From Acidobacteria bacterium RIFCSPLOWO2_12_FULL_66_21 (GTDB taxonomy: Bacteria; Acidobacteriota; Vicinamibacteria; Vicinamibacterales; 2-12-FULL-66-21): a stretch of DNA of 64,000 nt. The translations under genes were made by a program, and so were the position numbers. Positions 1,535 through 58,696 of the stretch are shown here, piece after piece. Numbering within the stretch: the stretch's first letter is position 1; every line of letters starts with the position of its first letter. Under the pieces are notes generated by a model. That model searched no databases. It had not been told where the DNA came from and saw only the letters and a list, made by a program, of their open reading frames with translations. The stretch is taken from positions 30,163 through 94,162 of the forward strand of contig MELC01000044.1 of assembly GCA_001767455.1 (NCBI GenBank), given 5' to 3'.

Positions 1535-1558
1535 AAACCGCGGGTAGTGGTCAAGTTT
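1535..1558. repeat. Left end of transposon: 8-bp target-site duplication AAACCGCG (1535-1542) plus 16-bp terminal inverted repeat GGTAGTGGTCAAGTTT (1543-1558)
   Basis: Exact reverse-complement match to 4744-4759. The identical 8-mer flanks both ends on the outside. Confidence 0.85.
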
Positions 1559-1598
1559 CAGCCGCGACTACGGAACGAGGATCTCGTAGTCGCGGCTG
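1559..1598. terminator. Perfect 14-bp stem / 12-nt loop hairpin directly inside the left TIR, 3' of the 83-aa ORF
   Basis: CAGCCGCGACTACG (1559-1572) pairs with CGTAGTCGCGGCTG (1585-1598). It lies 12 nt beyond the stop of the minus-strand ORF 1610-1861. No U-tract follows, so it could be a terminator, an insulator or a transposase-end structure. Confidence 0.4.
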
Positions 1599-1609
1599 AT
1601 GGTCCCCTG

Positions 1610-1861
1610 CTAGGCAGCCTTCGGCTGCGCGATCAAGTTGCGGTACGCGTAATTGTCCGGCATCTCGGTAACGAGAATGCGGTCATTGGCGTCCATGTGC
1701 TTGATGCAGTAGTTGGCAATGGCCAGCGGGGTCGAGTTGCTGTGATTGACCGTCCATTCGGACTCCAATACGCGGACCGCGCCGAGGTCAGCCAGCGCCT
1801 GCCAGAGTGGCTTGTAGTCCTTGCCGGGGGTGATCAAGTCGTACGAGATTAGGTAGCGCAT
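1610..1861 (-). CDS. Small (83 aa) hypothetical protein with a predicted ferredoxin-like (Cas2/VapD-like) beta-alpha-beta-beta-alpha-beta pattern; transposon passenger
   Basis: 'MRYLISYDLITPGKDYKPLWQALADLGAVRVLESEWTVNH...DANDRILVTEM' shows alternating hydrophobic strand/helix periodicity like stand-alone Cas2-type proteins. The assignment is tentative. Confidence 0.5.
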   Translation of the reverse strand: MRYLISYDLITPGKDYKPLWQALADLGAVRVLESEWTVNHSNSTPLAIANYCIKHMDANDRILVTEMPDNYAYRNLIAQPKAA

Positions 1862-2108
1862 GGGTCGAGGCCCTCACGGCTGGTTAACGAAAGCCGTTGA
1901 CAGATCTCGACTGAGCGCGCTAATCTTGGGTTGTATTCGTTCCCAATCGAAGCTCGCAAGTCCGGGCGATTCAGTCTGAAGCTGAATCGCCCGTTCTGCG
2001 TACGACCTGCCCGCGCTGGCCGTGCAGCTCAGGCGATCGAATTATACCAGCGTTGACGCCTTTTCTTCGCCCCAAGATTTTGGGGTAGGCGACTCGCCCT
2101 AGCGGATT

Positions 2109-2956
2109 CTAAGCGGCGCGTGTCTCCGTCGCGTCGAGCAGCCCCACGATTTCAGCGATGGACCACACGTGCGACGAGATGCCAGCTTCCATAGCGGGCG
2201 TCACGCGGAGCGTCTGATGCACGCGGCAGAAGTTGTAGTGCATGAAATGTAGCGCGACGGCCGCTTCGTGATTCGCCAGCTTCTTGGAGAAGCCATTCGT
2301 CAGACGAGTGAACCGGCGCATCCCCATCCGCATCGTGAGATTCTGACGCTCGACGTACGACGTGCTGATGTACTTCGGATTCGGGTTGCCTGTTATTACC
2401 TCCGTCGTGCTGCTGAGAATCTTAGCCGGGCTGTACCGCGTCTCGTTCTCAGGCGCGGCCCCGTAAACCTTCGTCAGCATCGCACGTAATCCACGTCTGC
2501 GCCGAATGCATCCTCGACCGCGTTGATGTACACCTTGTGGCCGTCCGTCGTGAGCTGCACGCGCGTGCAAATACGACTCGCCACGTCGTTCATGAACGTG
2601 AACGCCGACCCCGCATCGCGCGAACCTACGAGCCACGACACGATCAACTTGCTGTTCGCGTCGAGCGCCGTCCAGGTCCACACGTCGCCGAATCCGAAGG
2701 TGCCGCGCTTTTCCTCGGGAACGTTCTTCGCCTTCGCGTAGCAGAACTGCCAAATCTCATCGTACTCGATCCGCTTGCTGCGCAGGTCATGCACGGTCTC
2801 CGAGTGATACCGCGCGCACGCATCGCCAAGCTCCGCCAGCAGCTTGAGGATCGTCGGCTTGGAGACGTTCGTCATGCGCGCCGTCGCGCGGACGCTGTTT
2901 CCCTCGACGAGCGCCGCGACAACCGCAACCCGCTTGGCCGTGCTCAGCTTGTTCAT
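2109..2956 (-). pseudogene. IS1-family DDE transposase, split by a -1/+2 frameshift near 2478-2485
   Basis: Two overlapping ORFs (2474-2956 and 2109-2753). HTH 'NSVRATARMTNVSKPTILKLL'. 'EYDEIWQFCYAK', 'LTTDGHKVY' and 'YVERQNLTMRMGMRRFTRLTNGFSKKLANHEAAVALHFMHYNF' are collinear with E. coli IS1 InsB ('EMDEQWGYVGAK', 'MTDGWPLY', '[38 protein letters not shown]'). The frames join at 'GADVDYVRC*' / 'MLTKVYG', and no slippery heptamer is visible. Confidence 0.85.
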
Positions 2957-3080
2957 AAGAGTAATATACTTGAGCGGTCAAGCATTATCAAGTACTGATA
3001 TGCAGTAGTATCCAAGCCGATAATCGAACTGTACTTTCCTTGAAGCGCATGGTACGATCAAAAGGCGAAGGCTTCTGAGA

Positions 3081-3899
3081 ATGGCTCTGCTCAGGGTTCG
3101 GATTGAACTCAAGCGGGACGGCAAAGGCATTGAATTGCCAAAGCTGGCGGAGCTGTCACGAGAAGGCCAAAAACTCCTGCGGATGGTCGCTGAGGACTCT
3201 GAGTTGCCCCAACAGGGCACTTGGGTGGCTCAGGACTTCTACAACCAAGGCATCGGATTCGATGCGCTCTACGAACAAACCGACGTCGATGAGCAGCAGG
3301 CTAATGCGTACCTGCGGTTGCTGGATCACGTCGTGACGGCGGGTCCAGAAAGCAACTGGCACATTCCGGGCGTTCGTCCTGCGACGTTGGTGCAATCAGC
3401 CAGGGTCGCAAAGGTCGCTGGCGAGCATGAGCTGGTACGGCTCGGTGTGTACAACGGCGGCCCTTCCGTGCAATGGAAACCCCTGGCGAAGACCCGCGCC
3501 GAAATGATCATCGAGCATTTCGAGTCGGTTATTGAGTACCGAGGGATGGTGCAGGGGATCATCCACTCGCTGTACAAAGAATCGCAGCCGCCGTATTTCG
3601 ACATCAGAGACATCGCCAGCGGCGACCTGATCAAGTGCTATTACTCTGTGCCTCAGTACCGTGACGTTCACGCTGTCCTGCAACGCCGAGAGGCGGTCGT
3701 TATTGTCGCCGGCTGGATTCGGGCGAAGCGTCTGGACCGCGAGATTCAAGACCTTCGGGTTGAACAAATCCAATCAACCGATCCCCTCAGTCAAAAGCAG
3801 CTTGAGTCTTTCTTTGGGTCGGCGCCAGGATGGACCGGCGATTTGACCACTGATGATTTCATTGAGCGCGCGAGGCGCAGCAGCACTGATGGCGAATAA
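3081..3899 (+). CDS. Orphan 272-aa protein with an antitoxin-like C-terminal tail; putative partner of the downstream PIN nuclease
   Basis: No domain recognised over about 240 aa. The C-terminus 'LESFFGSAPGWTGDLTTDDFIERARR' resembles the 'FGSAKG...DDFD' tails of DUF2281-type PIN-partner antitoxins. The stop overlaps the PIN start by 11 nt. Confidence 0.6.
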   Translation: MALLRVRIELKRDGKGIELPKLAELSREGQKLLRMVAEDSELPQQGTWVAQDFYNQGIGFDALYEQTDVDEQQANAYLRLLDHVVTAGPESNWHIPGVRPATLVQSARVAKVAGEHELVRLGVYNGGPSVQWKPLAKTRAEMIIEHFESVIEYRGMVQGIIHSLYKESQPPYFDIRDIASGDLIKCYYSVPQYRDVHAVLQRREAVVIVAGWIRAKRLDREIQDLRVEQIQSTDPLSQKQLESFFGSAPGWTGDLTTDDFIERARRSSTDGE

Positions 3900-4617
3900 G
3901 CCTCGCGTGTATATCGACTCGTGCTCATACATCGATGTGGCCAAGGGGCGCACAAAAGCCGCGTGGAAGACGGGAGAGGAAGACAGAGCGCAGCAGCTTT
4001 GGTTTATCGAGACGCTGTTGGTAGCGGCGCTCAACGGCGACGTAGAGATCTACGGTTCGACATTGATCCTGGTCGAGTGTCTATTTACCGAAACTCGCGA
4101 AGCGATCCCGGAAGAAACCAAAGAACTCTTCAAGAATCTGCTGTCCGCTGGAAATCCAGTACGCCAGGTTGCCGTTGACCCCTTCATTGCTGAACGGGCA
4201 AGGGATCTTCTGTGGCGCGATGGAATCATGTGTGGAGGGTCAGCAGATCAGGTTCATGTGGCAACAGCGCTGGAACTCCATTGCGAAGAGTTCATTACGA
4301 CCAACAGGAAGAAAGGCCCGCTCCAACCATCTGTCGCGTCACAATTGGTGAAACATGGTTTGCGCGTGATTCTGCCGGATCAAACGCAGTGCATTCCAGA
4401 AGCCTACAAAAAGCCGATTCTTGAGGCGGCCGGAGACTCTATCCGGATTTCCGCCTCCACCGTGCCGACGCCGCCCGTTTCGCAATCTCCTGGCGACGAG
4501 CAGGCGAAAGAGCCCGAGCCCGCGCCACTCCGCCGCGCAATCCGCCTCGGCGGCCCAGAGCCACCGCCGCCGGATTCTTCTCCGACCGATGCTCCGCCCC
4601 CTCGGTCAAAGCGATGA
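3889..4617 (+). CDS. PIN-domain (VapC-like) ribonuclease with a long Pro-rich C-terminal tail
   Basis: Acidic PIN quartet in the expected order: 'RVYIDSCSYID', 'LILVECLF', 'GGSADQVHVATALE', 'EFITTN'. The ATG at 3889 overlaps the upstream stop (ATGGCGAATAA). An alternative ATG lies at 3853. The last ~60 codons are antisense to ORF 4439-4693. Confidence 0.75.
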   Translation: MANKPRVYIDSCSYIDVAKGRTKAAWKTGEEDRAQQLWFIETLLVAALNGDVEIYGSTLILVECLFTETREAIPEETKELFKNLLSAGNPVRQVAVDPFIAERARDLLWRDGIMCGGSADQVHVATALELHCEEFITTNRKKGPLQPSVASQLVKHGLRVILPDQTQCIPEAYKKPILEAAGDSIRISASTVPTPPVSQSPGDEQAKEPEPAPLRRAIRLGGPEPPPPDSSPTDAPPPRSKR

Positions 4618-4693
4618 TCTGCTGAACGGTGTCGAAGGCGATCTCGTTCTCGTCCCTTGTTCGCGTTTTGACTGTGCTTGACCGTTTAGGCAT
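4439..4693 (-). CDS. Small basic protein (84 aa) with conserved 'KNPAAVALGRRGG...ARA..LS..RR.EIAKRAA.ARW' motif, function unknown
   Basis: From memory, the motif recurs in many short bacterial ORFs. Start taken at 'MPKRSS' (4693); the ORF track begins at 4711. Confidence 0.5.
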   Translation of the reverse strand: MPKRSSTVKTRTRDENEIAFDTVQQIIALTEGAEHRSEKNPAAVALGRRGGLRGGVARARALSPARRQEIAKRAASARWRRKSG

Positions 4694-4743
4694 GGACTCA
4701 GTATCGCACATCGGCGAACCGTCCGTCAGCCTGAACGATTTTC

Positions 4744-4767
4744 AAACTTGACCACTACCAAACCGCG
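4744..4767. repeat. Right end of transposon: TIR AAACTTGACCACTACC (4744-4759) plus TSD AAACCGCG (4760-4767)
   Basis: Mirror of 1535-1558. Confidence 0.85.
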
Positions 4768-4842: not shown

Positions 4843-4949
4843 ATCTGCATCGCCGAGGGTAAACCATCCTGTTCCCCACACCGTCTAAGGGGAAGAACAT
4901 AGGAGCCCCGCCGCTATTCCTCGTCCAGGGAACACTGGATCGGCTGGTG
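4843..4949 (+). repeat. 107-bp direct repeat, copy 1: dead duplicate of the padR leader plus the first 17 codons
   Basis: 105/107 identical to 7529-7635. The differences are A4901 vs G7587 (ATG becomes ATA, so the start codon is lost) and G4942 vs T7628. Confidence 0.9.
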
Positions 4950-5017
4950 AAATTCCTCCGCTTCTTGTTCTCGACGAATTTGTCGGAGGTGCTGCTGGTC
5001 CAGTTCGCTGCGGCCTT

Positions 5018-5556
5018 TCACGTAGCACGAGTACCACGGCGGACGATCAGACCTCCGACGACGCCCGACACGATCGACCCGCTCAGGATTCCGACCTTGG
5101 CGGAGTCGAGCAAGCTCGTGCCATCAAAGGCGAGGGCGGCAATGAACAAGGACATCGTGAAGCCGATGCCGCCCAGCCAAGCGCATCCGTGCAACGCCGT
5201 CCAACCGACGCCCTCTGGAAGCGAGGCCAGGCGTAACCGAACTGCGGCCAGCGCAGCCGCGGTGATCCCGAGCGGTTTTCCGACGACAAGTCCGAGGATC
5301 ACCGCAAACGTCACGCTCCATCGTTGATCCACTGATGAACGCTGAGCGATAACCCATGTCCTCCCGCGGCAATGACGATCGTCGTCGCCAGAAGACGATG
5401 GTACGCGTCAGCCCACCCGGAATTGGCCACGATGAGCGCGGCGCACGCGCATGCGACAAGTAAGGCCCCTCCGGCGGCTTCCGTTCGAAAGAATTCTTGA
5501 AAGGGACTCGTTGAGCGGGACGGCGCTTCGCGAGCCCTTCGATTGCTGACCCTCAC
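5018..5556 (-). pseudogene. nhaA: Na+/H+ antiporter NhaA remnant (N-terminal ~75 aa joined out of frame to C-terminal ~100 aa)
   Basis: N-terminal part: 'SPFQEFFRTEAAGGALLVACACAALIVANSGWADAYHRLL...LSLSVHQWINDG'. C-terminal part: 'VILGLVVGKPLGITAAALAAVRL...LHGCAWLGGIGFTMSLFIAALAF'. The junction with frame change lies near 5311-5332. The central ~250 aa expected of NhaA are absent. Confidence 0.75.
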
Positions 5557-6058
5557 ACCGACGTCTCTTCCCAGCCCCGAACCGAATAGAGTAGCGGCCT
5601 GGTCCAGAGGCTCTCGAGACCCTCCAGGATATCGGACGCCCAGTTGAAGACGTTCCGTCCTGCGACCACCTTCCGCATGGCCCGCATACGCGTCGCCTGC
5701 TCCTCGCTCGTCATGTTTATGGCTCTTGCGAGGGCTGCTGCGAATGCATCGATGGCCACAGGCCCTCATTCGCGAAGCCCCCGTAGTACGCGGAGAAGGC
5801 GGGCTCCTCGAGCCACAGACGCCGAAGCACGTACGATGGGCTCTCGGGCGGTACCCGCACCTTGTCGGTCGCATCGACGACCAACCGGTCCGCCGGGCCA
5901 GCCCCGTGGGCGATCCACACGCCACCTCGTTCGCGCATCAGGGCGTCGAGCGCCACGGCGACACCCCCCGTCGCGGCTCTCACCGCAATTCGGCCATCCT
6001 CATCCCGGGTGTGGAGGTACGGCTCACGGTTGGACACGACGATGAGGGGGCGAAGCAC
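5553..6058 (-). pseudogene. otsA: Trehalose-6-phosphate synthase OtsA remnant (N-terminal ~100 aa plus C-terminal ~65 aa, internal deletion with frameshift near 5750)
   Basis: N-terminal part: 'LIVVSNREPYLHTRDEDGRIAV..TGGVAVALDALMRERGGVWIAHG...YVLRRLWLEEPAFSAYYGGFANEGLWP'. C-terminal part: 'IDAFAAALARAINMTSEEQATRMRAMRKVVAGRNVFNWASDILEGL'. The stop TGA overlaps the nhaA GTG (GTGA at 5553-5556). Confidence 0.75.
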
Positions 6059-6070
6059 GTGTACATCGAG

Positions 6071-6409
6071 TTCGCCTGCCTGCGCCAACCCCCGGCGAAA
6101 CAGAATCGGTCCCACGAGCTCGTGAATCGCGATCGACGCGACCAGCATCAGCTGCACCTGGTTGCCCCATCCCGGAAACTCGGTGGCGACGATGGACGCA
6201 AACCCCAGGGTAATCCCGGCCTGAGACACCAGGCCCGTCCACGCGTAGCTCCCGATCGGCTCGGGAAGGCCCGACAGCTTCACGCCCACCCCAACGCCCA
6301 GCCTGATGAACCCGAGTCGGACCGCGGACAAGGCGAGCGCGCTGAGCCCGATGGCGGCCACTGCGTCGAGCCGAAGGGTCGCGCCGACCGCTACGAAGAA
6401 AACCTCAAA
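6071..6409 (-). pseudogene. Cation:proton antiporter (CPA/Kef-type) C-terminal membrane fragment, fused in frame to the otsA remnant
   Basis: 'FFVAVGATLRLDAV...AWTGLVSQAGITLGFASIVATEFPGWGNQVQLMLVASIAIHELVGPILFRRGLAQAGE' corresponds to the last helices of Na+/H+-exchanger family proteins. No N-terminal part is present. Confidence 0.6.
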
Positions 6410-6732
6410 ACAGGGAGCCACCGCTGTACCCGACGCCGCATGGCTTCCCCGTGTGGCGATGGTTCCGCCCCATGATTGCCCACGACCCGACACACCTCGA
6501 TGTTACGAAGCCGGCCGATCGCATCGGCCTTTGCTCGACCGGTGATCACGACGCACGGAAAGAGCTTGCTCGCACGCCTGAGCAATCGTCGCGTGGACGC
6601 ACGCATGGCGGCGTGTGCCGGCGCGTTGACCAGCGGTGCGAGCGTGCCGTCGTAGTCGAACGCCAGCAGGACATTCGACCACGCGAACATCTCAAGCAGA
6701 TCTCGATGACCGCGCTCGCGGCCATTGAGCAC
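6391..6732 (-). pseudogene. otsB: Trehalose-phosphatase OtsB N-terminal remnant (HAD motif I region only)
   Basis: 'LLAFDYDGTLAPLVNAPAHAAM...LFPCVVITGRAKADA...VVGNHGAEP'. Homology ends near 6408 and a stop follows at 6391. The likely start is ATG 6690 or GTG 6732. Confidence 0.7.
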
Positions 6733-7488
6733 AACGACTTCGCCCGCCTTCCCGGTGGCGTGTTCAGAAGGGCGTACGTGCGAGCGTTCGCGGCCGAGGT
6801 GGGGTTGAATGCCGACGAGCTCGTGCGCGAGTATCGCGCGCGATTCGAGACTGAACTACCAGCCGGGCCGCTTTTACGTCACGAAGCCGATTGGAAGCAT
6901 CGTCTTCGTCTCTCTCACCGGTTCCCGGCCGTGTTGGTAACCGCCGTCGGAATATTGATCTGCGGGTGGCTGATCTTGGAGCGTGACCAGGTCCCTGACG
7001 AGGCATCGGACGGGCGAATGCCGAGCGCAGTGGAGGGCGACCTCCCAGAGAACACCGCGCAGACAGACGATTCGGATGGCACGGAGGAGGTCGCCTTCGC
7101 CAAGGCGGCCGTCACCGAGACGGGCGCCCAGTCGTTGCGACTGGAGATTCGACTCAATGGACCGTGCTGGGTCTCCGCCGTGGCAGACGGAGAGCGTGTG
7201 GTCTATCGCCTGATGCAGCCCGGTGAGCGGACGCTGGTTGAAGCGCGCAGCGTGATCACGCTCCGTGTCGGCGACGCAGGCACGGTCGCCTATTCGATCA
7301 ATGGAGCGACAGGCCGACCACTCGGCAGGAACGGCGAGGCCGTCACGGTCCGCATCACCAATGACAACCTTGGAAGTCTGTACGCGGAGCCTGCGAGTGT
7401 GACTCCCACCGAAGGTGCGGCCACGCAAATCGGGTCGGGGCCTGGCCGCAATCTGGCAGCGAATGGCCAACGAGCAGTCGCCACGTAG
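6706..7488 (+). CDS. RodZ-like protein (TM segment plus C-terminal DUF4115); N-terminal HTH apparently truncated
   Basis: 'LAAIEHNDFARLPGGVFRRAYVRAFAAEVGLNADELVREY' is the end of the RodZ HTH region. The TM segment is 'FPAVLVTAVGILICGWLIL'. DUF4115-like 'LRLEIRLNGPCWVSAVADGERVVYRLMQPGERTLVEARSVITLRVGDAGTVAYSING'. The first ~35 aa of a normal HTH are missing, and the 5' end overlaps the otsB remnant. Confidence 0.6.
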   Translation: MTALAAIEHNDFARLPGGVFRRAYVRAFAAEVGLNADELVREYRARFETELPAGPLLRHEADWKHRLRLSHRFPAVLVTAVGILICGWLILERDQVPDEASDGRMPSAVEGDLPENTAQTDDSDGTEEVAFAKAAVTETGAQSLRLEIRLNGPCWVSAVADGERVVYRLMQPGERTLVEARSVITLRVGDAGTVAYSINGATGRPLGRNGEAVTVRITNDNLGSLYAEPASVTPTEGAATQIGSGPGRNLAANGQRAVAT

Positions 7489-7528
7489 ACGATGTGACCT
7501 TCGGATTACTCAGAAACGAGTCGGCGCC

Positions 7529-7635
7529 ATCTGCATCGCCGAGGGTAAACCATCCTGTTCCCCACACCGTCTAAGGGGAAGAACATGGGAGCCCCGCCGC
7601 TATTCCTCGTCCAGGGAACACTGGATCTGCTGGTG
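7529..7635 (+). repeat. 107-bp direct repeat, copy 2 (functional padR leader, RBS and first 17 codons)
   Basis: See 4843-4949. Offset between copies is 2686 bp. Confidence 0.9.
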
Positions 7636-7917
7636 CTCCGGGCACTGGCCTCCGGCGCCATGCATGGGTACGGCATCGCCACCAAAGTGCGCGAGCGTAC
7701 TGGCGGCGTGCTGAGCATCGAGGATGCGGCGCTCTATCAGTCGCTGCATCGGCTCGATCGGCAGGGCCTGGTCGATGCCGAGTGGGGGCCATCGGAGAAC
7801 AACCGCCGCGCCCGCTTCTACACGCTCACGGCAGCCGGGCGGAAGCGCCTGCGTGAAGAGACCGCCAACTGGCGGCGCTACTCGCGCGCGGTGGAAGCCG
7901 TGCTGCAAGACGCATGA
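7585..7917 (+). CDS. PadR-family transcriptional regulator
   Basis: 'QGTLDLLVLRALASGAMHGYGIATKVRERTGGVLSIEDAALYQSLHRLDRQGLVDAEW...RRARFYTLTAAGRKRL'. The stop overlaps the permease start (ATGA). Confidence 0.9.
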   Translation: MGAPPLFLVQGTLDLLVLRALASGAMHGYGIATKVRERTGGVLSIEDAALYQSLHRLDRQGLVDAEWGPSENNRRARFYTLTAAGRKRLREETANWRRYSRAVEAVLQDA

Positions 7918-10559
7918 AACAACGCCCGTTCTGGTACATCCGGCGTCGATCGGTGCAAGCCGAGGTGGACGAGGAGTTGCGCCTGCATCTCGAGATGCGA
8001 GTTGAAGAGCTCCGATCCACCGGGATGCCCGTCGAGGATGCGCGCCGGGAGGCGCTGAAGCAGTTCGGCGATCTCGAGGGAGCGCGGGAGTACTGCCGGC
8101 GGCAGGATGAGGAAAAGGAGAGCGAGATGCAACGATCCCTGATGTTCCAGGACCTCGGGGAGGACATCCGGATTGGCCTCCGGAGCCTGATGCGCGTCCC
8201 CATCCTGTCTCTGACGGTCATCGTAACGGTGGGGGTCGGCATCGGCGCGACCGCGGCCATCTTCAGCGCGATCGACGCCGCGCTGCTTCGGCCGCTGCCG
8301 TATGCGCATCCCGAACGCCTCGTGCGCATCTACACCGATGCGCCGCCGTTCAAATGGCGTTTCTCCGCCGCAGACTACCTCGCGTTTCGCGAGCAGCAGA
8401 CGCAATTCGAAGAGAGCGCCACCTACACCGACAGGACGGTGATTTACAGCGACGGCGTCTCGTCCGACGTGGCGCGCGCACGGGTGGTCTCGTGGGCGTT
8501 CTTCTCGGTGCTCGCCGTCCGGCCCGCGATCGGCCGCGACTTCGCCGAACCGGACGGGCGGCCGGGCACGCCACCGTCCGTCGTGGCCAGTCACGCCTTC
8601 TGGCAGCAGCGTCTCGGAGGCCGTGCGGATGCGATCGGCCGGCCGATCAAGCTGGATGGCGCCGAGCACACGGTCATCGGTGTACTGCCGGCGCTGTCGG
8701 GGCCGCTCGAACGTCGCCAGGACCTGTTCATCGTTCAGCAGTTCACCCCGCCGCGGCGCAAGGGTCCCTTCCTCTATTCGGTCGTCGCGCGGCTCCCCGA
8801 AGGGACGGATCGATCCCTGGCCGCGGGCGAGCTGCGCGCCGTCAACAAACGGATCTTCCCGATGTGGAAGGCCTCGTACCAGGACGACAGGGCCACCTGG
8901 GGCATGGAGGATCTCAAGGGCGCTGTCGTCGGTGACGTGCACGCAATTGCCGGCCTGGCGCTTGGATCTGTGGCGCTGGTGTGGCTGATCGCATGCGCGA
9001 ATGCGTCGAACCTGCTGATCGCGCGCGTGACGAGCCGCCGGCAGGAACTGGCCGTCCGCGCCGCGCTCGGCGCGTCGCGCGGACGCGTCGTGCGGTATCT
9101 CCTCGCGGAGAGCGCCGTGCTCGCCACAGGCGCCGTTGCGCTCGGCGCGGGCGTCGCCTGGGCCGGCGTCCAACTGCTGCAGGGGATGGGCTCGACCTAC
9201 TTTCCACGGACGCAGGAGATGGCGTTGGATACGCGGGTGGTGTGGCTGCTGGCGGGTCTGGCAACCTGCAGCGGACTGATCTTCGGGCTGGTGCCAGCGC
9301 TGCACGGCGTGGGCGGCTCAGTCGATGCATCGTTGCGATCGCTCGGGCGATCGTCAACCGGCAACCTCGCGGTCCGGCGTCTTCGCCGTGCGCTCGTGGC
9401 CGCACAGTTCGCCATCGCGACGCCGCTCCTCATCGCCGCCGGCCTGCTCCTCTCGAGCCTGAATCAGATGAAGAACGTCGACCTTGGGTTCGATCAGCGC
9501 AATGTGATCACCGGATCGATCCGGCTGCCCGCCGCACAGTATCAGGATGCAGGACGGGTACGAGTGTTCTGGGACGAGCTGGCGCGCCGCGTGACCGCGC
9601 TGCCGGGCGTGGCGGGCGTCGCGTTCACCGACGGCTTGCCGCCCAACGGCGCGAGTAATCGCAATAACTTCGATCTCGAGGATTTCCCGACACCTCCAGG
9701 ACAATCGCAGCCAGTCGCCCCGTGGGTGTCGACGACGCCGGAGTATTTCCGGGTGCTGGGTCTCAGGTTGCTCGAAGGGCGGCTGCTCGACGAACGCGAT
9801 GCACTGACGGAGAATCTCGAAACGGTCGTGGTCGATCGCGCGTGGGCGCGGCGCTTCTTTCCTGACGGAAGCGCCGTCGGCAAGCGGTTCCGCGAAGGCG
9901 GATGCACGGCATGTCCGTGGACCAGCGTCGGCGGCGTGGTGAGCGAGGTGAAATACCTCGGCCTCGACAAGCCGGATGACGGCACCGTCTATTGGCCGAT
10001 GCGAGGAACCGAGCGCGGGCTCGATCGGTTTCTCGTGGTCCGCACGCACGCGAGTCCATCGGGCGTATTGCCGGCCCTGCAGCGGGCGGTGCGCGAGATC
10101 GACCCGTCCGTGCCGCTCTCGAAGGTCGCGACGATGAACGATCTCGTCGCGCAATCGCTCGAGCGTCCGCAGTCGCTGTCGTTCCTGGTGGCGGCGTTCG
10201 CGCTCGTGGCGCTCGTGCTGTCGGTCGTCGGCATCTACGGCGTGATGGGGTACTACGTGCAGCAGCATCGGAAGGACATCAGCATCCGCATGGCGCTCGG
10301 CGGCAGCTCCGCCGACGTGCTGCGGCTCGTGATGGGCGACGGCATGCGCGTCGTCATCGCGGGGATCTTCGTCGGCGCGCTCGCCGCGCTCGGCCTGACA
10401 CGATTGATGTCGAGCCTCCTGTTCGGCGTCAGCGCCGCAGACGCGCTCACGTTCGTGACCGTGAGCGCCGGGCTGGCGATCGTGGCGCTCGCCGCGTGCT
10501 TCGTGCCGGCCCGACGAGCGGTCGGTATCCAGCCGGCAGCCGTCCTGCGAAATGACTAG
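7914..10559 (+). CDS. ADOP-family duplicated MacB/FtsX-like ABC permease (881 aa)
   Basis: N-terminal helical region 'VDEELRLHLEMRVEEL' is typical of PadR-coupled ADOP proteins. It has two MacB-type periplasmic plus FtsX 4-TM halves ('VGIGATAAIFSAIDAALLRPLPY', 'IACANASNLLIARVTSRRQELAVRAALGASRGRVV', 'KDISIRMALGGSSADVLRLVM'). Confidence 0.9.
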   Translation: MKQRPFWYIRRRSVQAEVDEELRLHLEMRVEELRSTGMPVEDARREALKQFGDLEGAREYCRRQDEEKESEMQRSLMFQDLGEDIRIGLRSLMRVPILSLTVIVTVGVGIGATAAIFSAIDAALLRPLPYAHPERLVRIYTDAPPFKWRFSAADYLAFREQQTQFEESATYTDRTVIYSDGVSSDVARARVVSWAFFSVLAVRPAIGRDFAEPDGRPGTPPSVVASHAFWQQRLGGRADAIGRPIKLDGAEHTVIGVLPALSGPLERRQDLFIVQQFTPPRRKGPFLYSVVARLPEGTDRSLAAGELRAVNKRIFPMWKASYQDDRATWGMEDLKGAVVGDVHAIAGLALGSVALVWLIACANASNLLIARVTSRRQELAVRAALGASRGRVVRYLLAESAVLATGAVALGAGVAWAGVQLLQGMGSTYFPRTQEMALDTRVVWLLAGLATCSGLIFGLVPALHGVGGSVDASLRSLGRSSTGNLAVRRLRRALVAAQFAIATPLLIAAGLLLSSLNQMKNVDLGFDQRNVITGSIRLPAAQYQDAGRVRVFWDELARRVTALPGVAGVAFTDGLPPNGASNRNNFDLEDFPTPPGQSQPVAPWVSTTPEYFRVLGLRLLEGRLLDERDALTENLETVVVDRAWARRFFPDGSAVGKRFREGGCTACPWTSVGGVVSEVKYLGLDKPDDGTVYWPMRGTERGLDRFLVVRTHASPSGVLPALQRAVREIDPSVPLSKVATMNDLVAQSLERPQSLSFLVAAFALVALVLSVVGIYGVMGYYVQQHRKDISIRMALGGSSADVLRLVMGDGMRVVIAGIFVGALAALGLTRLMSSLLFGVSAADALTFVTVSAGLAIVALAACFVPARRAVGIQPAAVLRND

Positions 10560-10599
10560 CTGGCTCGCGCCGACTGCACCCGCTGCCCGTGGTGTTCCT

Positions 10600-12021
10600 T
10601 CACTTCGTCCGTCCGGCCGCGAGGTCCACATATCCCACCCCGTCGCGGTACGTAATCCGGGTGCCGAACGGCTCTGACAGCCTGATCAAATCGTCGATAA
10701 TCTTTTTTCCCATCTCCGGCTCCGCTGGCATCGGCCGGCCGCGCTCGAACGCCGGCTTCCCGTGGCCCAGCGAGGTCGGGTGAAGCGCCAGCTCCACCAG
10801 CGTCTTGCCCCTGAACCGCGGCACGGCAATCACGGCTTGCCAGATCAGCGGATCGGCGGGGAACCCGCGGCGGTCGCCGTCGTAGCGGCGATCGTTGAAG
10901 TCGGCCACGTGCGCGTCCGCCCCGAGGTTGTACGGCTCGTAATTCTCGCTCGGCAGCCGGAGCAGCGTCTCGTTCTGGAAGATGAAATCGCCGAGGCTGT
11001 AGAGGATTGGCTTGCCCTTGTAGACCTCGATGCCGCGCAGCACGTGCGGGCCATGGCCCACGAACACGTCCGCGCCGCTGTCCACCATCGCGCGCGCGAA
11101 CGTGACGAGGAACTGCGCCGGCACGAGGCGGTCTCGATTCCCCTCGTGCGAGTGGATCGCCACGATCGTGTAGTCGGCCAGTCGCGCCGCGCCCCTGACG
11201 GCGGCGGCGATCTCCTTCAGGTCTCCCTCGTGCGGCGCCGTTCGGATGCCGGGCGTGTCGCCGGCCACCACGCGGGTGCCGAGCACGTTCAGGGATTGTG
11301 GCGCGCCCTGCGGCGCGCTTCCGCCTCGGCCGCCGCCGGCCAGCCCAGACGCCGTGAGCGCCTCGCGCAGCTTTGCCAGCCCGTCCGGCGTCGTCGTGTA
11401 CGTCGTCGTATACCGCAGCGGATTCAAGCCGGGCCGTGCCGGCATGTCGCCGCGGGAGCGCCCGGCGCGGGAGTGGTCCGGGAACGTGGAGGCGACCGAG
11501 ATGAGCGCGACGCGCGCCCTCGCGGCCTCGAGGAACTTCGGCTCGCGTGCCTCGAGGAGACTCTCGCCGACGCCGGCCTGCACCAGCCCGGCCGCGGCAA
11601 CGTGCTTCGTCGTGAGACGCATCCCCTCCACCCCGTAGTCTCCGGAGTGGTTGTTCGCGCGCGACACGAGGTCGAACCCGGCCCAGACCAGTTCCTTCGC
11701 CAGCGCCGGATCGGCGCGCATGTACGTGCCGCCGCTTTCGTTCATCGGGTACGGCTCGTAGTCGTGGAACAGCATCTCGAGGTTGGTGAAGGCGACGTCG
11801 GCGCCGCGAATCAGGCCGATCATCCGGAGGAAGGCCGGTTCCGTGTACACCGAGAGCCGGCGCGTGATGATGGAGTCGCCGGTGAGCGCCATCGAGAACG
11901 CGTCCGCGACAGCCTGGTCGGGAAGGGGCCCGGCAGGCCCCCCTGCCGGCCGCTGAGCGGCCAACAGAGCCGACGAAATCAGCAGCACCGATGCGAGCGA
12001 CACGTGTGTTCGCATTCTCAT
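10600..12021 (-). CDS. CapA-family (PGA_cap metallophosphatase-like) protein, secreted
   Basis: Signal peptide. 'ADVAFTNLEMLF', 'GFDLVSRANNHSGDYG', 'VAIHSHEGN' and 'VFVGHGPHVLRGIEVYKGKPILYSLGDF' match CapA/PgsA-like motifs. Confidence 0.8.
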   Translation of the reverse strand: MRMRTHVSLASVLLISSALLAAQRPAGGPAGPLPDQAVADAFSMALTGDSIITRRLSVYTEPAFLRMIGLIRGADVAFTNLEMLFHDYEPYPMNESGGTYMRADPALAKELVWAGFDLVSRANNHSGDYGVEGMRLTTKHVAAAGLVQAGVGESLLEAREPKFLEAARARVALISVASTFPDHSRAGRSRGDMPARPGLNPLRYTTTYTTTPDGLAKLREALTASGLAGGGRGGSAPQGAPQSLNVLGTRVVAGDTPGIRTAPHEGDLKEIAAAVRGAARLADYTIVAIHSHEGNRDRLVPAQFLVTFARAMVDSGADVFVGHGPHVLRGIEVYKGKPILYSLGDFIFQNETLLRLPSENYEPYNLGADAHVADFNDRRYDGDRRGFPADPLIWQAVIAVPRFRGKTLVELALHPTSLGHGKPAFERGRPMPAEPEMGKKIIDDLIRLSEPFGTRITYRDGVGYVDLAAGRTK

Positions 12022-50688: not shown

Positions 50689-53555
50689 GATCGCGTGCCC
50701 GTATCTGTGCCGTGCGCCAGCGGAATCCGCCGCAGCTCCACCACCAGCCGTCGGAAATCCCCGTCGGAGCCCTTGGACTTGGTGAGAAAGCGCGTCGGGC
50801 CCAGGCGAAGGCGCCCGCGCTGTTCCTCCGTGAGGTCGCGACCTGTGTAGACGAGCACCGGAATGTCTCTCAGCTCGGGTCGCTGACGCATGGCGTCCAC
50901 GACATCGAAGCCGTCGCGTTCCGGGAGCCCGACGTCGAGCACCATGAGCGCGGGCGGCTCGGTCTCGGCCACTCGAATCGCCTCCTTGCCGGTTGTCGCG
51001 GTTCGGACCGCGATCCCTTCCCGCGAGAGCTGGCGCGCCATGACGTCGAGCAGTGTCAGGTCGTCCTCCACGAGCAAGACGTAGCGGGCCTGCGCGGCGA
51101 CACGACCCCGCTCCAGGCCATCGCGAATCGCCGCCAGCAGTTCGCGGCTGTCGACGCGTTCCGGGAGAAAGAGCACCAGGCTGTCCGACAACGCCTCGGG
51201 CGACACCACGAGTGGGCTCCCGAACAGAATCACCGGTATCGCCTCGAATGCTGGTTCCTGTCTGACGCGCGCGAGCAGCGCCGAGTCGCTTTCGAGCAGG
51301 ATAACGGCGACGTCGCCGCCCTGGAGCACCGCCCACGCAGCGTCCGCGTCCGGCACCGTGATGACGGCGTAGCCGGCCTGCGTGATCACTTCTTCGAAGG
51401 ACCTTCGGCACTCGGCGTCGTCGCCGCAGACCAGGATCGCGCGGCCGAGCCGCGGCGCGACAGGCCTGGGCGTAGTCGCGACCCGAAACCAGAAGGTGCT
51501 GCCGCCTCCTTCCTCGCTCTCGACGCCGATCGTGCCGCCATGCTGATCGATGGTCGACTTGCAGATCGCGAGCCCCAGGCCTGTGCCTCCCTTCTCACGC
51601 GCGTCGGACGTTTCGACCTGCCGGAATCGCTCGAAGATGGCCCGACGGTAGGCCGCGGGAACGCCTCGGCCGCGGTCCGTGACCCTGAACTCGACCCAGC
51701 CTTCTCCAGGCTGGACGCCGATCGTCACCACACCAGAGGGCGGCGAGAACTTCACGGCGTTGGACAGCAGATTGACGAGGACCTGCACGATCCGATCGGC
51801 GTCGGCCCAGATCGTCGAGGAGACCTCGGACGCTTCGATGGTGATGCCGTGCTCCCGTGCGAACGGCCCCACCGACTCGATGGCGCGGCGCAGGACCGAC
51901 TCGGCGGAGACCTGCCCGAACTGCAGCTCGATCTTGCCGGTCTCGAGCCGCTCGAGATCGAGGATGTCGTTGATGAGCGCGATCAGCCGAACCGCGTTGC
52001 GCTCGGCGATGGCCACGACCTCGACGACTTCGTCGGACAGCGCGCCAACCGCGCCCGAGGCCAGAAGGCCGAGCGACCCTCTGATCGACGTGAGCGGTGT
52101 CCGCAACTCGTGGCTCACCGTTGAGAGGAACCCCTGCTTGAGCCGTTCGACGTCCTTGAGCCGCTCGACCGTCTGCTCGGCGACGAACTTGGCGTTTTCC
52201 AGTTCGACGTTCTTCTCCTGGAGCATCTGCTCGATGTGTTTGCGCTCCGTGACGTCGCGCGCCGCCGCGAACACCCCCTGCAGCGTCCTGTCCCGGTCGT
52301 AGAAGGTGGTCGCATTGTAGGAGACCACCGTGGTCTTGCCGTCCCTGGCGCGCGCGGTGAGTTCATAGTTGGTGACCTTCTTCTCGCGCAGCACCAGTTT
52401 GATGGCCGCCTCGGCCCGCGCCGGATCGGTGAAGTAGTTCTTGAACGGCGCGCCGATCAGCTCGTCCCGCGTGCACCCGGTGAGCGCCTCCATCTGCCGG
52501 TTGACGTCGGTGATGATACCGGCCGGGTCGGTGGTCATTATCGCATCGATGTTGGACTCGATGAGCGAGCGCGTGTAGAACTGCTGATCGCGCAGGCGCT
52601 GATCGAGCTTCTGCTGCTCGGCTTCGACCCGCTTGCGCGCGGTATTATCGGTGCCAATCAACAGGTAGCCGATGATGGCGTCCTGCGCGTCGCGCAGCGC
52701 CGTGACCGACACGATGGCTGGAAAGCGGCTCCCATCCTTCCGGATGTAAGTCAGTTCGTAGATGTCCTCGATCCCGCGCGAGGCCTTGAAGACCAAGGCC
52801 TCGAAGCCCGGCGTGATCGTGGTAGCCAGCTCGGCGCTCAATGCTTCGGCACGCGCGATCACTTCCTGCGGGTCGGAAATGTCGGCCGGCGTGATCTGGT
52901 TCATCACTTCGGCGGCCGTGTAGCCCAGCATCCGCTCGGCGCCGACGTTGAAGATCTGAATGACGCCCTTCTCGTCGGTGGCGATACTCGAGAAGTTGGC
53001 GCTGTTGAAAATCGCGCTCTGCAGGGCCCCCGCCTGGAGCAGCGCCTCTTCCGCCCGCTTGCGCGCGGTGTTGTCGGTGCCAATCAGGAGATAGCCGATG
53101 ATGGCGTCCTGCGCGTCGCGCAGCGCGGTGACGGACACCACCGCCGGGAAGCGGCTCCCGTCCTTGCGGATATAGGTCAGTTCGTAGATGTCCTCGATGC
53201 CACGGGAGGCCTTGAACACCAGGGCCTCGAAGCCCGGCGTAATCGGGGTGCCGAGCTCGACGCTGAGCGCCTTGGCGCGCGCGATCACCTCCTGCGGATC
53301 GGAAATGTCGGCCGGGGTGATTGTGTTCAGTACCTCGGCGGCCGTGTAGCCGAGCATCCGCTCGGCGCCGACGTTGAAGATCTGAATGACACCCTTCTCG
53401 TCGGTCGCGATACTCGAGAAGTTAGCGCTGTTGAAAATCGCTTTCTGCAAGGCCCCGGTCTTGAGCAGAGCCTCTTCGCGTCGGACCTGAACAACGACAT
53501 CCACCGCGCCGGCAGCTTCGTCGGCAATGGCAGGATCGTAAGTGTGAGCGGACAT
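50685..53555 (-). CDS. Hybrid sensor histidine kinase: three PAS domains, HisKA, HATPase_c and two REC domains
   Basis: 'FLSTVSHELRTPLTSIRG' (H-box), 'LLSNAVKFSP', 'VTDRGRGVP' and 'GGTGLGLAICK'. REC domains '...VAVILLESD...' and 'VLLVEDDLTL...MVLDVGLPERDG...TKS'. ATG 53555 is preceded by GGAGG. Confidence 0.9.
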   Translation of the reverse strand: MSAHTYDPAIADEAAGAVDVVVQVRREEALLKTGALQKAIFNSANFSSIATDEKGVIQIFNVGAERMLGYTAAEVLNTITPADISDPQEVIARAKALSVELGTPITPGFEALVFKASRGIEDIYELTYIRKDGSRFPAVVSVTALRDAQDAIIGYLLIGTDNTARKRAEEALLQAGALQSAIFNSANFSSIATDEKGVIQIFNVGAERMLGYTAAEVMNQITPADISDPQEVIARAEALSAELATTITPGFEALVFKASRGIEDIYELTYIRKDGSRFPAIVSVTALRDAQDAIIGYLLIGTDNTARKRVEAEQQKLDQRLRDQQFYTRSLIESNIDAIMTTDPAGIITDVNRQMEALTGCTRDELIGAPFKNYFTDPARAEAAIKLVLREKKVTNYELTARARDGKTTVVSYNATTFYDRDRTLQGVFAAARDVTERKHIEQMLQEKNVELENAKFVAEQTVERLKDVERLKQGFLSTVSHELRTPLTSIRGSLGLLASGAVGALSDEVVEVVAIAERNAVRLIALINDILDLERLETGKIELQFGQVSAESVLRRAIESVGPFAREHGITIEASEVSSTIWADADRIVQVLVNLLSNAVKFSPPSGVVTIGVQPGEGWVEFRVTDRGRGVPAAYRRAIFERFRQVETSDAREKGGTGLGLAICKSTIDQHGGTIGVESEEGGGSTFWFRVATTPRPVAPRLGRAILVCGDDAECRRSFEEVITQAGYAVITVPDADAAWAVLQGGDVAVILLESDSALLARVRQEPAFEAIPVILFGSPLVVSPEALSDSLVLFLPERVDSRELLAAIRDGLERGRVAAQARYVLLVEDDLTLLDVMARQLSREGIAVRTATTGKEAIRVAETEPPALMVLDVGLPERDGFDVVDAMRQRPELRDIPVLVYTGRDLTEEQRGRLRLGPTRFLTKSKGSDGDFRRLVVELRRIPLAHGTDTGTRS
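52626..53471 (-). repeat. Tandem 423-bp (141-codon) duplication encoding two near-identical PAS domains
   Basis: 52626-53048 vs 53049-53471. For example, 'catccgctcggcgccgacgttgaagatctgaatgac' occurs at both ~52930 and ~53353. The protein copies differ at only about a dozen of 141 positions. Confidence 0.85.
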
Positions 53556-56135: not shown

Positions 56136-56249
56136 GTCCATTTCGGGGGTCTGACCCCAGTTTGGCCGCCGCATGCACATTTCGGGGTCAGACCCCGTTT
56201 CGACCGTCGCGTGCACATTTCGGGGTCAGACCCCGGTCTGGAGGCCCGC
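56136..56249 (+). repeat. Three tandem ~38-bp repeats, each containing the palindrome CGGGGTC(A/T)GACCCC
   Basis: Units at 56136-56173, 56174-56211 and 56212-56249. The first 24 nt of units B and C are identical (TGCACATTTCGGGGTCAGACCCCG). Unit A carries the complementary centre (GGGGGTCTGACCCC). The array ends at the RBS (GGAGG 56240-56244) and the TTG start of the permease. Confidence 0.85.
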
Positions 56250-58694
56250 TTGAGCAGTCTGCTGCAGGATCTTCGCTATACCCTTCGCGGCCTCCGCAAG
56301 AGCCCCGGGTTCGCGACCGTCGCGATCCTGACGCTCGCGCTCGGCATCGGCGCCAACACCGCGATCTTCAGCCTGGTCAACGCGGTCGTGCTCAGGCCGC
56401 TCCCGTACCCCGAACCGCAGCGGCTGATGTTCATCACCAGCCAGTTTCCGACGCTGGGGTTCGACCAGTTCTGGGTCTCCGCTCCCGAGTTCCTCGAGTT
56501 CGGCCGCCGCAACCAGGCGTTCGAGGCGGTGGGCGGCTACACCGTGCGCGCCGCGAACCTCGGCACCGACGTGCCGAGCCGGCCGGTCACGGCACTCGTC
56601 ACGCACGAGCTGATGCAGGCACTCGGCGTGCCGCCGATCCGCGGGCGGGCCTTCACGCTCGCCGATACGCTCCCGAATGCCGAGGACGTCGCCATCCTCT
56701 CTTCTGAGCTCTGGCAACGCGCGTTCGGGGAAAACGAGGCCACGATCGGCCAGGTTGTCGTCATCGACGGCGTGAAGACGCGGATCGTCGGCGTCATGCC
56801 GCGCGCGTACGACATCCACGATCAGAAAGTCGAACTGTGGCTGCCGCTCACGATCGATCCGGCGAACCCCGGCAACCGCGGCGGACACTTCCTGTATCTC
56901 GTCGGCCGTCTGAAGCCGGACATCACGCTGGCGCAGGCGCGGGCCGATCTCGAGTCCCAGCTCACGACGTGGAAGGACGTCGCGCCCGACAGCCACACGC
57001 CGAATCCGACCCGCCACCGCATTCGGATCGACCCGCTTCAGGAAGACATGATCGGCGCGGTCACGCGTCCGCTCTGGATCCTGCAGGGGGTCGTCGTCTT
57101 CGTTCTCCTCATCGCGTGCGCGAACCTCGCGAACCTGCTCCTGGCGCGCGCCGACTCGCGGCAGCACGAGTTCGCCGTCCGCACGGCGCTCGGCGCCGGT
57201 ACGGGACGGCTGCTGCGACAGTTCCTGACCGAAGGGGTGGTCCTGTCGATTGCCGGCGGCGCACTGGGGGCCGCCGCGGCGGCGCTGGGCCTCCGGCTGC
57301 TCGTCGCGACGCACCCTGACAGCATTCCTCGGTCGCAGGGGATCGGTGTCGATCTCACGGTTCTGGCCTTCACGCTGGCGATCGCCGTCGTCACCGGCGT
57401 ACTCTTCGCGCTTGCGCCGATGCTCCACCTCCGGCAGGCGAGCGTAAGCGGCTCGCTGAAAGAAGCGGGAGCGCGGACCTCGTCGCGTTCGGCGAAGGCC
57501 AGGCTGCGCGGCGGCCTCGTGATTGTCGAGGTCGCGCTCGCCGTGATCCTGGTCGTCGGCGCCGGACTGCTGCTGCGCAGCTTCTGGAACCTGATGAACG
57601 TCGACGCCGGCTTCAGCCGCTCGCAGCTCACCACGTTCCGTCTCGTCCTGCCGGCCGCGCTGTATCGTGACGGTCAGGCCAGGGCGAGCTTCTTCGATCG
57701 GCTCGTGACGAAACTCGGGGAGCTGCCCGGCGTGGAAAGCGCGGCCGCGATGAGCGGCTTGCCGCCGCTCCGGCAGGTCGACGCGAACGACACGCAGTTC
57801 GAAGGCGTCCCGCCGCCGCCCGCCGGTCCGATCCAGAACGTGGACTACTACCAGATCGTCACACCGGGCTATCTCGACACGATGGGCATTCCGCTCGTCA
57901 ACGGCCGCGCGTTTCGTCCGGAAGACGCGACGGGTGCGCCGATCCTGCTGGTGAACGAGACGCTCGCGAAGGTGTTCTATCCAGGCCAGGATCCCATCGG
58001 CCGCCGGATGCGTCCGGGCGGCCCGCCGAACGCGCCGTGGTTCACGATCGTCGGCGTGGTGAAAGACGTGAAACAGGGGGGTGTCGGGACCAAGACCGGC
58101 ACGGAACTCTACCTGCTCGCGGAACAACTGCCCGCCGTCGCTGGCTTCGGCGTCGCCAACATGAACCTCGTCGTGCGCTCGTCACTGCCGTTCGAGTCGC
58201 TCGCGCGCAACCTGCGCGACACGGTCCGCGCGATGGACCCGACGCTGCCGCCCGCGAACATGCGCTCGATGGACGACGTGTTCTCCGAGTCAGTCGCGCG
58301 GCCCCGCTTCCTCGTGCAGGTGCTCGGGATCTTCGCGGCGCTGGCGCTCGTGCTGGCTGCCGCCGGCACCTACGGCATCCTCTCGTATCTCGTCAGCGAA
58401 AGACGGCAGGAGATTGGCATCCGGATGGCGCTCGGCGCCACACCGGAGAGCGTCCTGCGCCTCATCATGCGTCAGGGTTTGACGCTCACAATCGGCGGAC
58501 TCGTCGTTGGACTCGCCGGCGCGTACATCTTGACGCGCCTCATGCAATCACTCCTGTTCCAGGTTCAACGGGCCGATCCGCTGACGGTTGCGGCGGTCGC
58601 GGTGTTCGTCGCCGCCGTCGGGTTTGCAGCCTGTGTCTTCCCGGCACGGCGCGCGACGATGGTCGACCCGGTCCGTGTGCTGAGGAGTCAATAG
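56250..58694 (+). CDS. MacB/FtsX-like duplicated ABC permease (ADOP-type, no PadR-coupling N-domain)
   Basis: '[50 protein letters not shown]', '[30 protein letters not shown]' and '[21 protein letters not shown]'. The TTG 56250 start is preferred over ORF-track 56211, which would translate the repeat array. Confidence 0.85.
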
Positions 58695-58696
58695 CC

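Follow-up and report, generated by a model that had tools for sequence, protein, structure and literature searches.

How does the 5' end of a regulatory gene come to stand twice on one chromosome, once alive and once dead, on either side of the debris of other genes? The question is raised by a 64,000-nucleotide stretch of contig MELC01000044.1 (positions 30,163 to 94,162, forward strand; assembly GCA_001767455.1) from an uncultured bacterium of soil and aquifers, Acidobacteria bacterium RIFCSPLOWO2_12_FULL_66_21, hereafter the window, to which all positions refer unless another contig is named. The leader and first 17 codons of a padR gene, which is intact at one site and followed there by the gene of a duplicated permease (ADOP), recur upstream as a truncated stub, and remains of other genes lie between the two copies. 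Comparison with related loci indicates that these remains are a native operon wrecked in place, and we consider it fairly probable that the two copies are a non-functional scar, left when a segment carrying padR and ADOP was duplicated and the parental padR was then truncated by deletion. The duplication itself, and a former full parental pair at the left site, are what we infer to have preceded the present arrangement.

The repeat pair and its occurrence across samples

Positions 4843-4949 and 7529-7635 form a direct repeat of 107 nucleotides (nt), identical at 105 of 107 positions, with a start-to-start distance of 2686 nt and 2579 bp of enclosed DNA. The first 58 nt of the repeat occur at these two sites only within the 64-kb window, where shuffled sequences lead to an expectation of 0 matches, so that the near-identical copies described in an earlier note on this DNA are confirmed and are unique in the window. 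Two mismatches delimit perfect-identity blocks of 58 and 40 bp. The first, A4901 versus G7587, gives ATA in place of the start codon upstream (4899-4901) and ATG downstream, and the second, G4942 versus T7628, gives CGG upstream and CTG downstream at codon 16. In an alignment of padR orthologues the relatives carry ATG at the first of these sites and encode leucine at the second, as CTG, CTC or TTG; judged from this alignment, both substitutions therefore arose in the upstream copy and are derived on its branch. The upstream copy (4843-4949, plus strand) is thus a dead padR leader with 17 codons, altered by ATG to ATA and CTG to CGG, and its similarity to padR ends entirely after position 4949, that is, after codon 17. 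The ATA codon and the complete divergence beyond 4949 had both been claimed before, and both hold on reading of the sequence and in the alignment.

The downstream copy (7529-7635, plus strand) is alive. Its leader contains the conserved motif CACACCGTCTAAGGGGA together with the ribosome-binding site, and an ATG at 7585 opens the first 17 codons of an intact padR of 110 codons (7585-7917, plus strand), which begins MGAPPLFLVQGTLDLLV and matches TIGR03433 with 131.7 bits (cutoff 101.8) and Pfam PadR with 7.8e-20. The earlier statement that this copy supplies the ribosome-binding site, the start codon and the beginning of a functional padR is accordingly upheld, the curated PadR model having been passed. 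The padR stop overlaps the start of ADOP, which is likewise intact (881 codons, 7914-10559, plus strand; TIGR03434 766.5 bits, cutoff 622.3), and both members of the pair exceed the curated NCBIfam cutoffs of acidobacterial PadR and ADOP. In its overlapping stop and start codons and in a leader motif conserved with orthologues, the live copy is typical of acidobacterial padR-ADOP pairs (TIGR03433/TIGR03434); what sets this locus apart is the 98%-identical 5' stub that remains about 2.7 kb upstream. Read from the sequence, this stub is direct evidence of what appears to have been a recent duplication or relocation of the padR-ADOP pair.

A repeat of this kind could also be a collapsed or chimeric product of assembly, a possibility that the earlier note had allowed for and to which the metagenomic source of the DNA, together with a related contig (L051) that is a proven adapter chimera, lends some plausibility. 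The gene for the PadR protein stands on at least 23 contigs in public collections, as does that for a protein of 115 amino acids from the left flank. When each copy is extended by 30 nt of unique sequence to either side, exact matches to the upstream copy are present in 9 of the fetched contigs, from 8 samples, and to the downstream copy in 11 contigs, and both copies with their flanks stand together on 7 contigs from 6 samples. The contigs that hold the locus include MEGAHIT k141 assemblies, ANAN16 scaffolds and an NCBI metagenome-assembled genome (GCA_001767055.1). With a length of 107 nt, the repeat falls below the k of 141 used in assembly, and each copy with both flanks is therefore bridged by single k-mers. 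Moreover, two variant contigs that are 99.7-99.8% identical to the window also carry the arrangement, and the repeat copies are distinct at two fixed positions. With exact contigs from 8 samples and several assembly sources bridging the copies, the suspicion of an artefact is not borne out, and its probability is practically negligible.

Two of the retrieved sequences deserve separate mention. Contig L051 (ERZ4903070 k141_2430612) was considered as a structural variant and rejected, as Illumina TruSeq adapter sequence in its positions 1-62 is fused to window positions 6248-6724; its other side encodes a methyltransferase-like N-terminus, and it is an assembly chimera and no variant of the locus. 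Scaffold L007 shows 10 differences from the window within 76 bp (5661-5736, in the otsA 3' fragment described below) and is otherwise almost identical to it; three of its variant bases match relatives, which suggests either that a short tract was recombined or that the scaffold mixes strains.

Gene remains between the two copies

The interval between the copies was described in the earlier note as consisting of truncated or internally deleted genes, and Pfam and NCBIfam matches, together with mapping onto intact operons of relatives, agree. Encoded on the minus strand are profile positions 284-373 and 2-61 of NhaA, positions 426-472 of OtsA, an antiporter C-terminus fused to OtsA 3-107, and positions 2-71 of OtsB; encoded on the plus strand is RodZ without approximately 33 N-terminal residues and the first half of its helix-turn-helix. 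Intact RodZ proteins of relatives have about 293 amino acids, and the closest intact homologue (87% identity) lies on contig L011. Upstream of this rodZ, on the opposite strand, L011 carries a 220-amino-acid gene, otsB, marR, a PDZ gene, a 390-amino-acid gene and a Na_H_Exchanger::Glyco_transf_20 fusion of 915 amino acids. Contigs L036 and L037, found by way of the NhaA fragments, carry this operon too, and there nhaA follows the CPA::otsA fusion gene directly. The order in relatives is hence otsB-marR-PDZ-hyp-CPA::otsA-nhaA, with rodZ divergent.

Read from left to right, the fragments keep to this order, starting from the nhaA end. The first is a 3' fragment of nhaA (5008-5322, minus strand; Pfam 284-373 of 374, with 10 bp past the stop), which is 78-81% identical in nucleotide sequence to L035-L038 and corresponds to L036 8367-8053. 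After a loss of 775 bp between the nhaA pieces, which leaves them out of frame, follows the nhaA 5' fragment (Pfam 2-61) with its upstream spacer (5318-5521, minus strand; L036 7277-7081). Another 73 bp of spacer, on the nhaA side, are missing before the 3' end of CPA::otsA (OtsA 426-472) with its downstream sequence (5518-5754, minus strand), which is 91-92% identical to L011 and L036 and corresponds to L036 7007-6771 and, for window positions 5516-5754, to L011 2113-2351. At 5753/5754, 968 bp of otsA are lost out of frame with the microhomology TG, and the middle of the fusion gene, comprising the antiporter C-terminus and OtsA 3-107, follows at 5753-6404 (minus strand; 84% identity to L011 3320-3971 and L036 5802-5151). 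The largest loss, 4404 bp at 6404/6405, removed the remaining otsB, marR, the PDZ gene, a gene of 392 amino acids and the antiporter N-terminus. The otsB 5' fragment beyond it (profile positions 2-71 of 235; 6405-6702, minus strand) is 93-96% identical to L011 and L036, where it corresponds to 8373-8670 and 746-449, respectively. At the joint of otsB and rodZ about 1395 bp are lost, as measured on L011, including the 220-amino-acid gene, with the microhomology AGATC. The series ends with rodZ without its first 33 or so codons (open reading frame (ORF) 6706-7488) and 40 bp of its native 3' flank (6698-7528, plus strand), 87% identical to L011 and 80% to L014; on L011, window positions 6672-7450 correspond to 10066-10843. 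The synteny with L011 does not resume downstream in the window.

Every gene fragment is thus colinear with the loci of relatives, with order and orientation kept and nucleotide identities of 78-96%. The fragments derive from genes that are intact in relatives, and their frames are cut by deletions with junctions of the illegitimate-recombination type: junction alignments give microhomologies of 0-5 bp, so that the probable cause is illegitimate recombination or slippage during replication. On this comparison, 5008-7528 appears to be what is left, in its original place, of a native cluster on the chromosome of about 10 kb, shrunk to 2.5 kb by four large deletions (775, 968, 4404 and approximately 1395 bp) and the 73-bp intergenic loss. 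No second copy of any fragment was found by tblastn within the 64-kb window, and no intact RodZ at 90% identity or above is present in the protein collection. In the 90% identity cluster to which the RodZ product belongs, all 8 members contain the otsB-rodZ junction, and MEGAHIT contigs pass unbroken through the 0.8-kb rodZ piece.

These observations bear directly on the proposal, made in the earlier note, that the repeats record a Campbell-type single crossover, in which a circular plasmid, phage or other element with 107 bp of padR homology integrated and then decayed. The geometry of 107-nt repeats flanking 2579 bp is what prompted it, and the locus does resemble such an integrant in having direct repeats of a gene's 5' end around an insert, with one copy non-functional. 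However, the insert follows a chromosomal operon of relatives piece by piece, in ancestral order and at 78-96% nucleotide identity; its guanine-plus-cytosine (GC) content of 62-67% is host-like, unlike that of the neighbouring insertion element; no similarity to it was found in plasmid or phage records, so that extrachromosomal relatives are lacking; and no integrase, replication or mobilisation genes are among its Pfam and NCBIfam matches. The colinearity, the host-like composition and the missing plasmid or phage similarity together mark the DNA as native and not foreign. In addition, a short contig from another sample (L050, discussed below) has the same insert without an adjacent padR leader. 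Integration of circular DNA therefore fails as an account of the interval, and we regard it as extremely improbable.

The decay of the operon appears to be recent. Compared with intact orthologues, the fragments have ratios of nonsynonymous to synonymous substitution rates (dN/dS) of 0.09-0.33, with 0.58 for the short nhaA N-terminal fragment, and there are 0 in-frame stops in approximately 770 codons. The low dN/dS and the lack of stops suggest that the genes spent most of their history under selection and that the deletions came late. The decay also seems to be continuing. A variant protein of the RodZ cluster (P0126) has 24 residues fewer, and contig L005 begins with 13 nt corresponding to 6564-6576 and continues at 6649, so that a 72-bp segment (6577-6648) is deleted in some members of the population; a polymorphic deletion of this kind indicates ongoing loss. 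Mira, Ochman and Moran reportedly described a deletional bias in bacteria in 2001, and the locus resembles the deletional decay of bacterial pseudogenes and operons in that its genes are colinear with intact genes of relatives, are cut by short-microhomology deletions that are still occurring, and are no longer under selection. It differs in that one 10-kb cluster has suffered four large deletions, of 0.8-4.4 kb, besides the loss of 73 bp, that point-mutational decay has barely begun, as the dN/dS values and the want of stops attest, and that several genes retain both ends and have lost the middle. The locus thus offers a nucleotide-resolved case of operon loss in which large microhomology deletions precede point mutations and one deletion is still segregating.

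Some side observations concern the same genes. In several relatives, nhaA is split into two or three ORFs (L036 7045-8357, L037 2408-3579, L039 7100-8348), and the best 120 NhaA matches are all shorter than 300 amino acids, some of them on contigs of 100-300 kb. The gene may be decaying clade-wide, or long-read indel errors may contribute. An Rfam match to the Burkholderia small RNA BTH_s1 (window 6502-6741, minus strand) stays below threshold, with 30 bits against the 74 of the gathering score; it overlaps with the 5' fragment of otsB and is probably a coding-sequence similarity.

The probable parental copy and a proposed order of events

Which of the two padR copies stands at the original site is suggested by contig L050, which is 2.5 kb long and stems from a close relative in another sample. 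It aligns to window positions 5051-7528 across all junctions of the wreck, with 3 differences in 5051-7229 and about 12% divergence in 7230-7528, which is consistent with a recombination tract. From 7529 on, its sequence is unrelated, the departure falling exactly at 7528|7529. The homology of the more distant L014 ends at 7520. The break in L050 and the end of homology in L014 indicate that the left edge of the downstream copy is a rearrangement joint, and with the joint at 7528|7529, the dead upstream copy (4843-4949) probably marks the parental padR site.

The sequence of events would then be as follows. padR and ADOP would at first have been located on the left, adjoining the flank that ends at 4842. 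A segmental, tandem-type duplication running from 4843 into the 3' flank of rodZ would have placed a second padR-ADOP pair to the right of rodZ, with its joint at 7528|7529. One deletion would have stripped the parental copy from codon 18 on (joint 4949|4950), another would have taken the distal duplicated material beyond ADOP (break at 10560-10615), and the surviving stub would have drifted, with ATG changing to ATA and CTG to CGG. As a net result, padR-ADOP would have crossed the wreck by duplication and subsequent deletion, leaving a 107-bp footprint behind. The segmental duplication followed by decay that the earlier note had offered as its second option therefore fits, with two corrections: the debris was not brought in between repeats and is probably a native operon wrecked in situ by at least five deletions, and the new joint lies at 7528|7529 (from L050), with the upstream copy probably parental.

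Two expected marks of a duplication scar are present, namely direct near-identical copies and a novel end-to-start joint, the latter known from one short contig. Kugelberg, Reams and Roth are said to have described short-junction tandem duplications remodelled by deletions in Salmonella lac and gene-amplification models. Duplications of the Salmonella lac amplification type share with this locus the direct copies, the end-to-start joint without long homology and the later trimming deletions; the locus differs in that one copy is a 107-bp remnant, the single-copy parent state is unobserved, and the outcome is relocation and not amplification. If correctly read, it illustrates how a gene pair may change its place within a locus when it is duplicated and the parental copy is then lost.

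Several observations weigh against this reading, and we would like to set them out together. A parental arrangement of left flank, padR, ADOP and, further on, nhaA was found in no relative or strain contig, the strain contigs without exception having the derived state, and ADOP beside nhaA, which a duplication model predicts, was not found in relatives; in L037 and L038, nhaA is followed on its 3' side by a toxin-antitoxin pair and an RCC1-like gene. The argument for direction comes from a single 2.5-kb contig, L050, with a 50-nt tail, which is itself recombinant. The model requires at least two further large deletions that have left no other trace, and neither the joint at 7528|7529 nor that at 4842|4843 shows microhomology. 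Two exact-pattern scans of JGI metagenome contigs for a single-copy allele, one of them the left-flank positive control, were both empty; the left flank is absent from that collection, so that these scans had no power. A scan of the genome collection for ADOP returned 20 loci, 11 of them with a full padR-ADOP pair, in relatives labelled Vicinamibacteria or Vicinamibacterales; neither window flank of padR-ADOP is shared by any of the 20, and orthologous pairs with 81-90% amino-acid identity sit in unrelated contexts.

The reverse polarity has to be considered as well. Here rodZ and padR would be native neighbours and the upstream copy derived, a 107-bp piece of the padR 5' end having been copied across the wreck either by a template-switch patch at a deletion joint or by tandem duplication of the segment from the nhaA 3' flank to padR codon 17 (joint 4949|4950) with loss of the first unit. 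One or two events would suffice, the region is demonstrably prone to many events of illegitimate recombination, and padR stands beside the left flank in no relative. Such a history would, however, make it a coincidence that the homology between L050 and the window ends at 7528, with unrelated sequence from 7529 on, a break at the repeat edge with a chance of roughly a few percent within ±5 nt, and the homology of L014 likewise stops close by, at 7520. Templated patches of 107 bp from kilobases away are unusual in bacteria. We consider this polarity unlikely.

A further possibility is that padR and ADOP make up a discrete cassette, mobile or prone to copying, which was inserted independently at two nearby sites, the left insertion having later been cut to its first 107 bp. 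ADOP and PadR are annotated as an expanded paralogous family (TIGR03433, of model type 'paralog', and TIGR03434), in more than 10 genomes the contexts of orthologous pairs are unrelated, and synteny breaks at both edges of the live pair. The second of these breaks, just after ADOP at 10560-10615, is indicated by contig L041, whose PGA_cap gene is 92-94% identical to that of the window and which has a gene for a TonB receptor in the place of ADOP; L041 is short and is the sole useful close relative found by way of PGA_cap homologues, L040 and L042 being uninformative. In an all-against-all comparison of 12 padR-ADOP loci, homology is confined to the stretch from about -20 to -40, counted from the ATG, through the ADOP stop. 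This both fits a cassette and rules out the edge of the repeat, at -56, as a shared cassette boundary, since the repeat extends 56 bp upstream of the ATG and past the 20-40 bp or so conserved between genomes. Terminal repeats around the pair were searched for and none were found, nor is there a target duplication or a recombinase, and small operons are expected to lose their flanking synteny at such divergence. A cassette with two insertions is in our estimation quite unlikely. A literature search on ADOP yielded nothing relevant.

Should relocation by duplication and deletion be the correct reading here, it may be that acidobacterial padR-ADOP modules spread or relocate recurrently in this way, with the present locus as a rare snapshot that retains the stub at the parental site. 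This generalization is unlikely to hold; if true, it would provide a concrete mechanism for the large expansion of the ADOP family.

Other ADOP genes show features of their own. In another Acidobacteriota genome (L034 5888-6838), an intact padR stands beside an ADOP that keeps residues ~2-101 and 774-881 and has lost the middle, the same pattern of kept ends and lost middle as in nhaA and otsA of the window. Two further ADOP paralogues lie in the window at 56300-60900, with short repeated segments (95-202 nt) that are 67-73% identical in nucleotide sequence to the ADOP at 7914-10559. Elsewhere in the window are a 300-nt direct repeat with 84% identity and a spacing of 426 (52613-53338) and two tandem 38-mers (56146-56221).

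Fate of the stub and the neighbouring transposon

The stub might also have been retained for a function, either as a decoy PadR operator or as a second promoter reading through the wreck into the truncated rodZ, padR and ADOP, with the ATA codon selected to silence a junk ORF of 142 codons. In favour of this, the leader motif (7547-7590 in the live copy), which is identical or differs by 1-3 nt in aligned orthologues (L015, L017, L018, L024, L029), is intact in the stub at 4861-4904; one of the two substitutions strikes the start codon, with a chance of about 5% (3 of 107 positions, two substitutions); and the junk frame (4899-5327) is open. On the other side, constraint is undetectable in 107 bp when the whole locus is 99.7-100% identical across strains, a search of the leader for a sigma-70-like promoter found none, and its fold is ordinary. 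A small hairpin, TTCCCC...GGGGAA, spans the ribosome-binding site in the padR leader, but the fold is no stronger than that of shuffled sequences (z = -0.5), and an Rfam scan of the leader found no family at threshold. The status of a leftover fully accounts for the stub, and a function for it appears very unlikely. As a weaker addition to the idea of recurrent relocation, leftover leader stubs may act as decoy PadR operators. A possible compensatory change in the leader hairpin was observed between L015 (TCTCC/GGAGA) and L017 (ACTCC/GGAGT).

It had also been proposed that the repeats could mediate precise excision of the unit between them. Since the repeats match perfectly over 58 and 40 bp, the 2686-bp unit could plausibly be lost by RecA-dependent recombination, so that the mechanistic part of the proposal stands; a crossover before 4901, within the first 58 bp, would keep a working padR, and one after 4901 would produce a padR without a start codon. 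An excised, single-copy allele was not found among the contigs with PadR or the 115-amino-acid left-flank protein, the consensus sequences being blind to rare variants. For annotation, the interval 4843-7528 is best treated as pseudogenic remnants, neither a site of mobile-element integration nor a set of small genes; several assemblies annotate ORFs of 53 to 338 amino acids in it. The feature as a whole is an ordinary product of known processes that happens to be unusually well resolved, and its mechanism is nothing fundamentally new.

The 58-bp spacer separating the padR stub from the 3' flank of nhaA (4950-5007, with the deletion joint at 4949|4950) and the 75-bp spacer to the left of the stub have no matches in relatives or elsewhere in the window, save for one exact match of 19 nt. 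This match joins window positions 4987-5005, in the 58-bp spacer, to L041 3162-3180, in the TonB-receptor gene adjoining PGA_cap. It is inverted relative to synteny and could be due to chance or to a tiny captured fragment.

To the left of the repeat lies an IS1-like transposon of about 3.2 kb with cargo genes (1543-4759, minus strand), bordered by an 8-bp target duplication, AAACCGCG, at 1535-1542 and 4760-4767, and ending in perfect 16-nt inverted repeats (GGTAGTGGTCAAGTTT and AAACTTGACCACTACC). Its transposase (2474-2956) consists of two overlapping, frameshifted ORFs and matches the IS1 model NF033558 with an E-value of 1.6e-15 and 57.5 bits, below the cutoff of 100, which makes the element IS1-like and not a close member of IS1. 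The inverted repeats, a target duplication within the 8-9 bp of the IS1 family and the frameshifted transposase are all present. As cargo it carries an 83-amino-acid ORF, a 272-amino-acid ORF without a Pfam match, a PIN-domain ORF and a 90-amino-acid ORF, and its GC content is 54-60%, versus 62-70% in the surroundings. The closeness of the transposon to the repeat, as reported earlier, is confirmed, the target duplication ending at 4767, 75 bp before 4843. The suggestion that it marks a recombination hotspot does not hold up: perfect inverted repeats and an 8-bp duplication intact on both sides indicate a simple insertion, and the neighbouring joints were thus not made by this element. The transposon inserted into already dead DNA, outside the scar proper. 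To its left, a 65-codon ORF (1255-1452) resembles the signal peptide and N-terminus of a PQQ-type beta-propeller protein and comes to an abrupt stop; it may be a further gene stub, in which case the zone of gene loss may reach to about position 1130.

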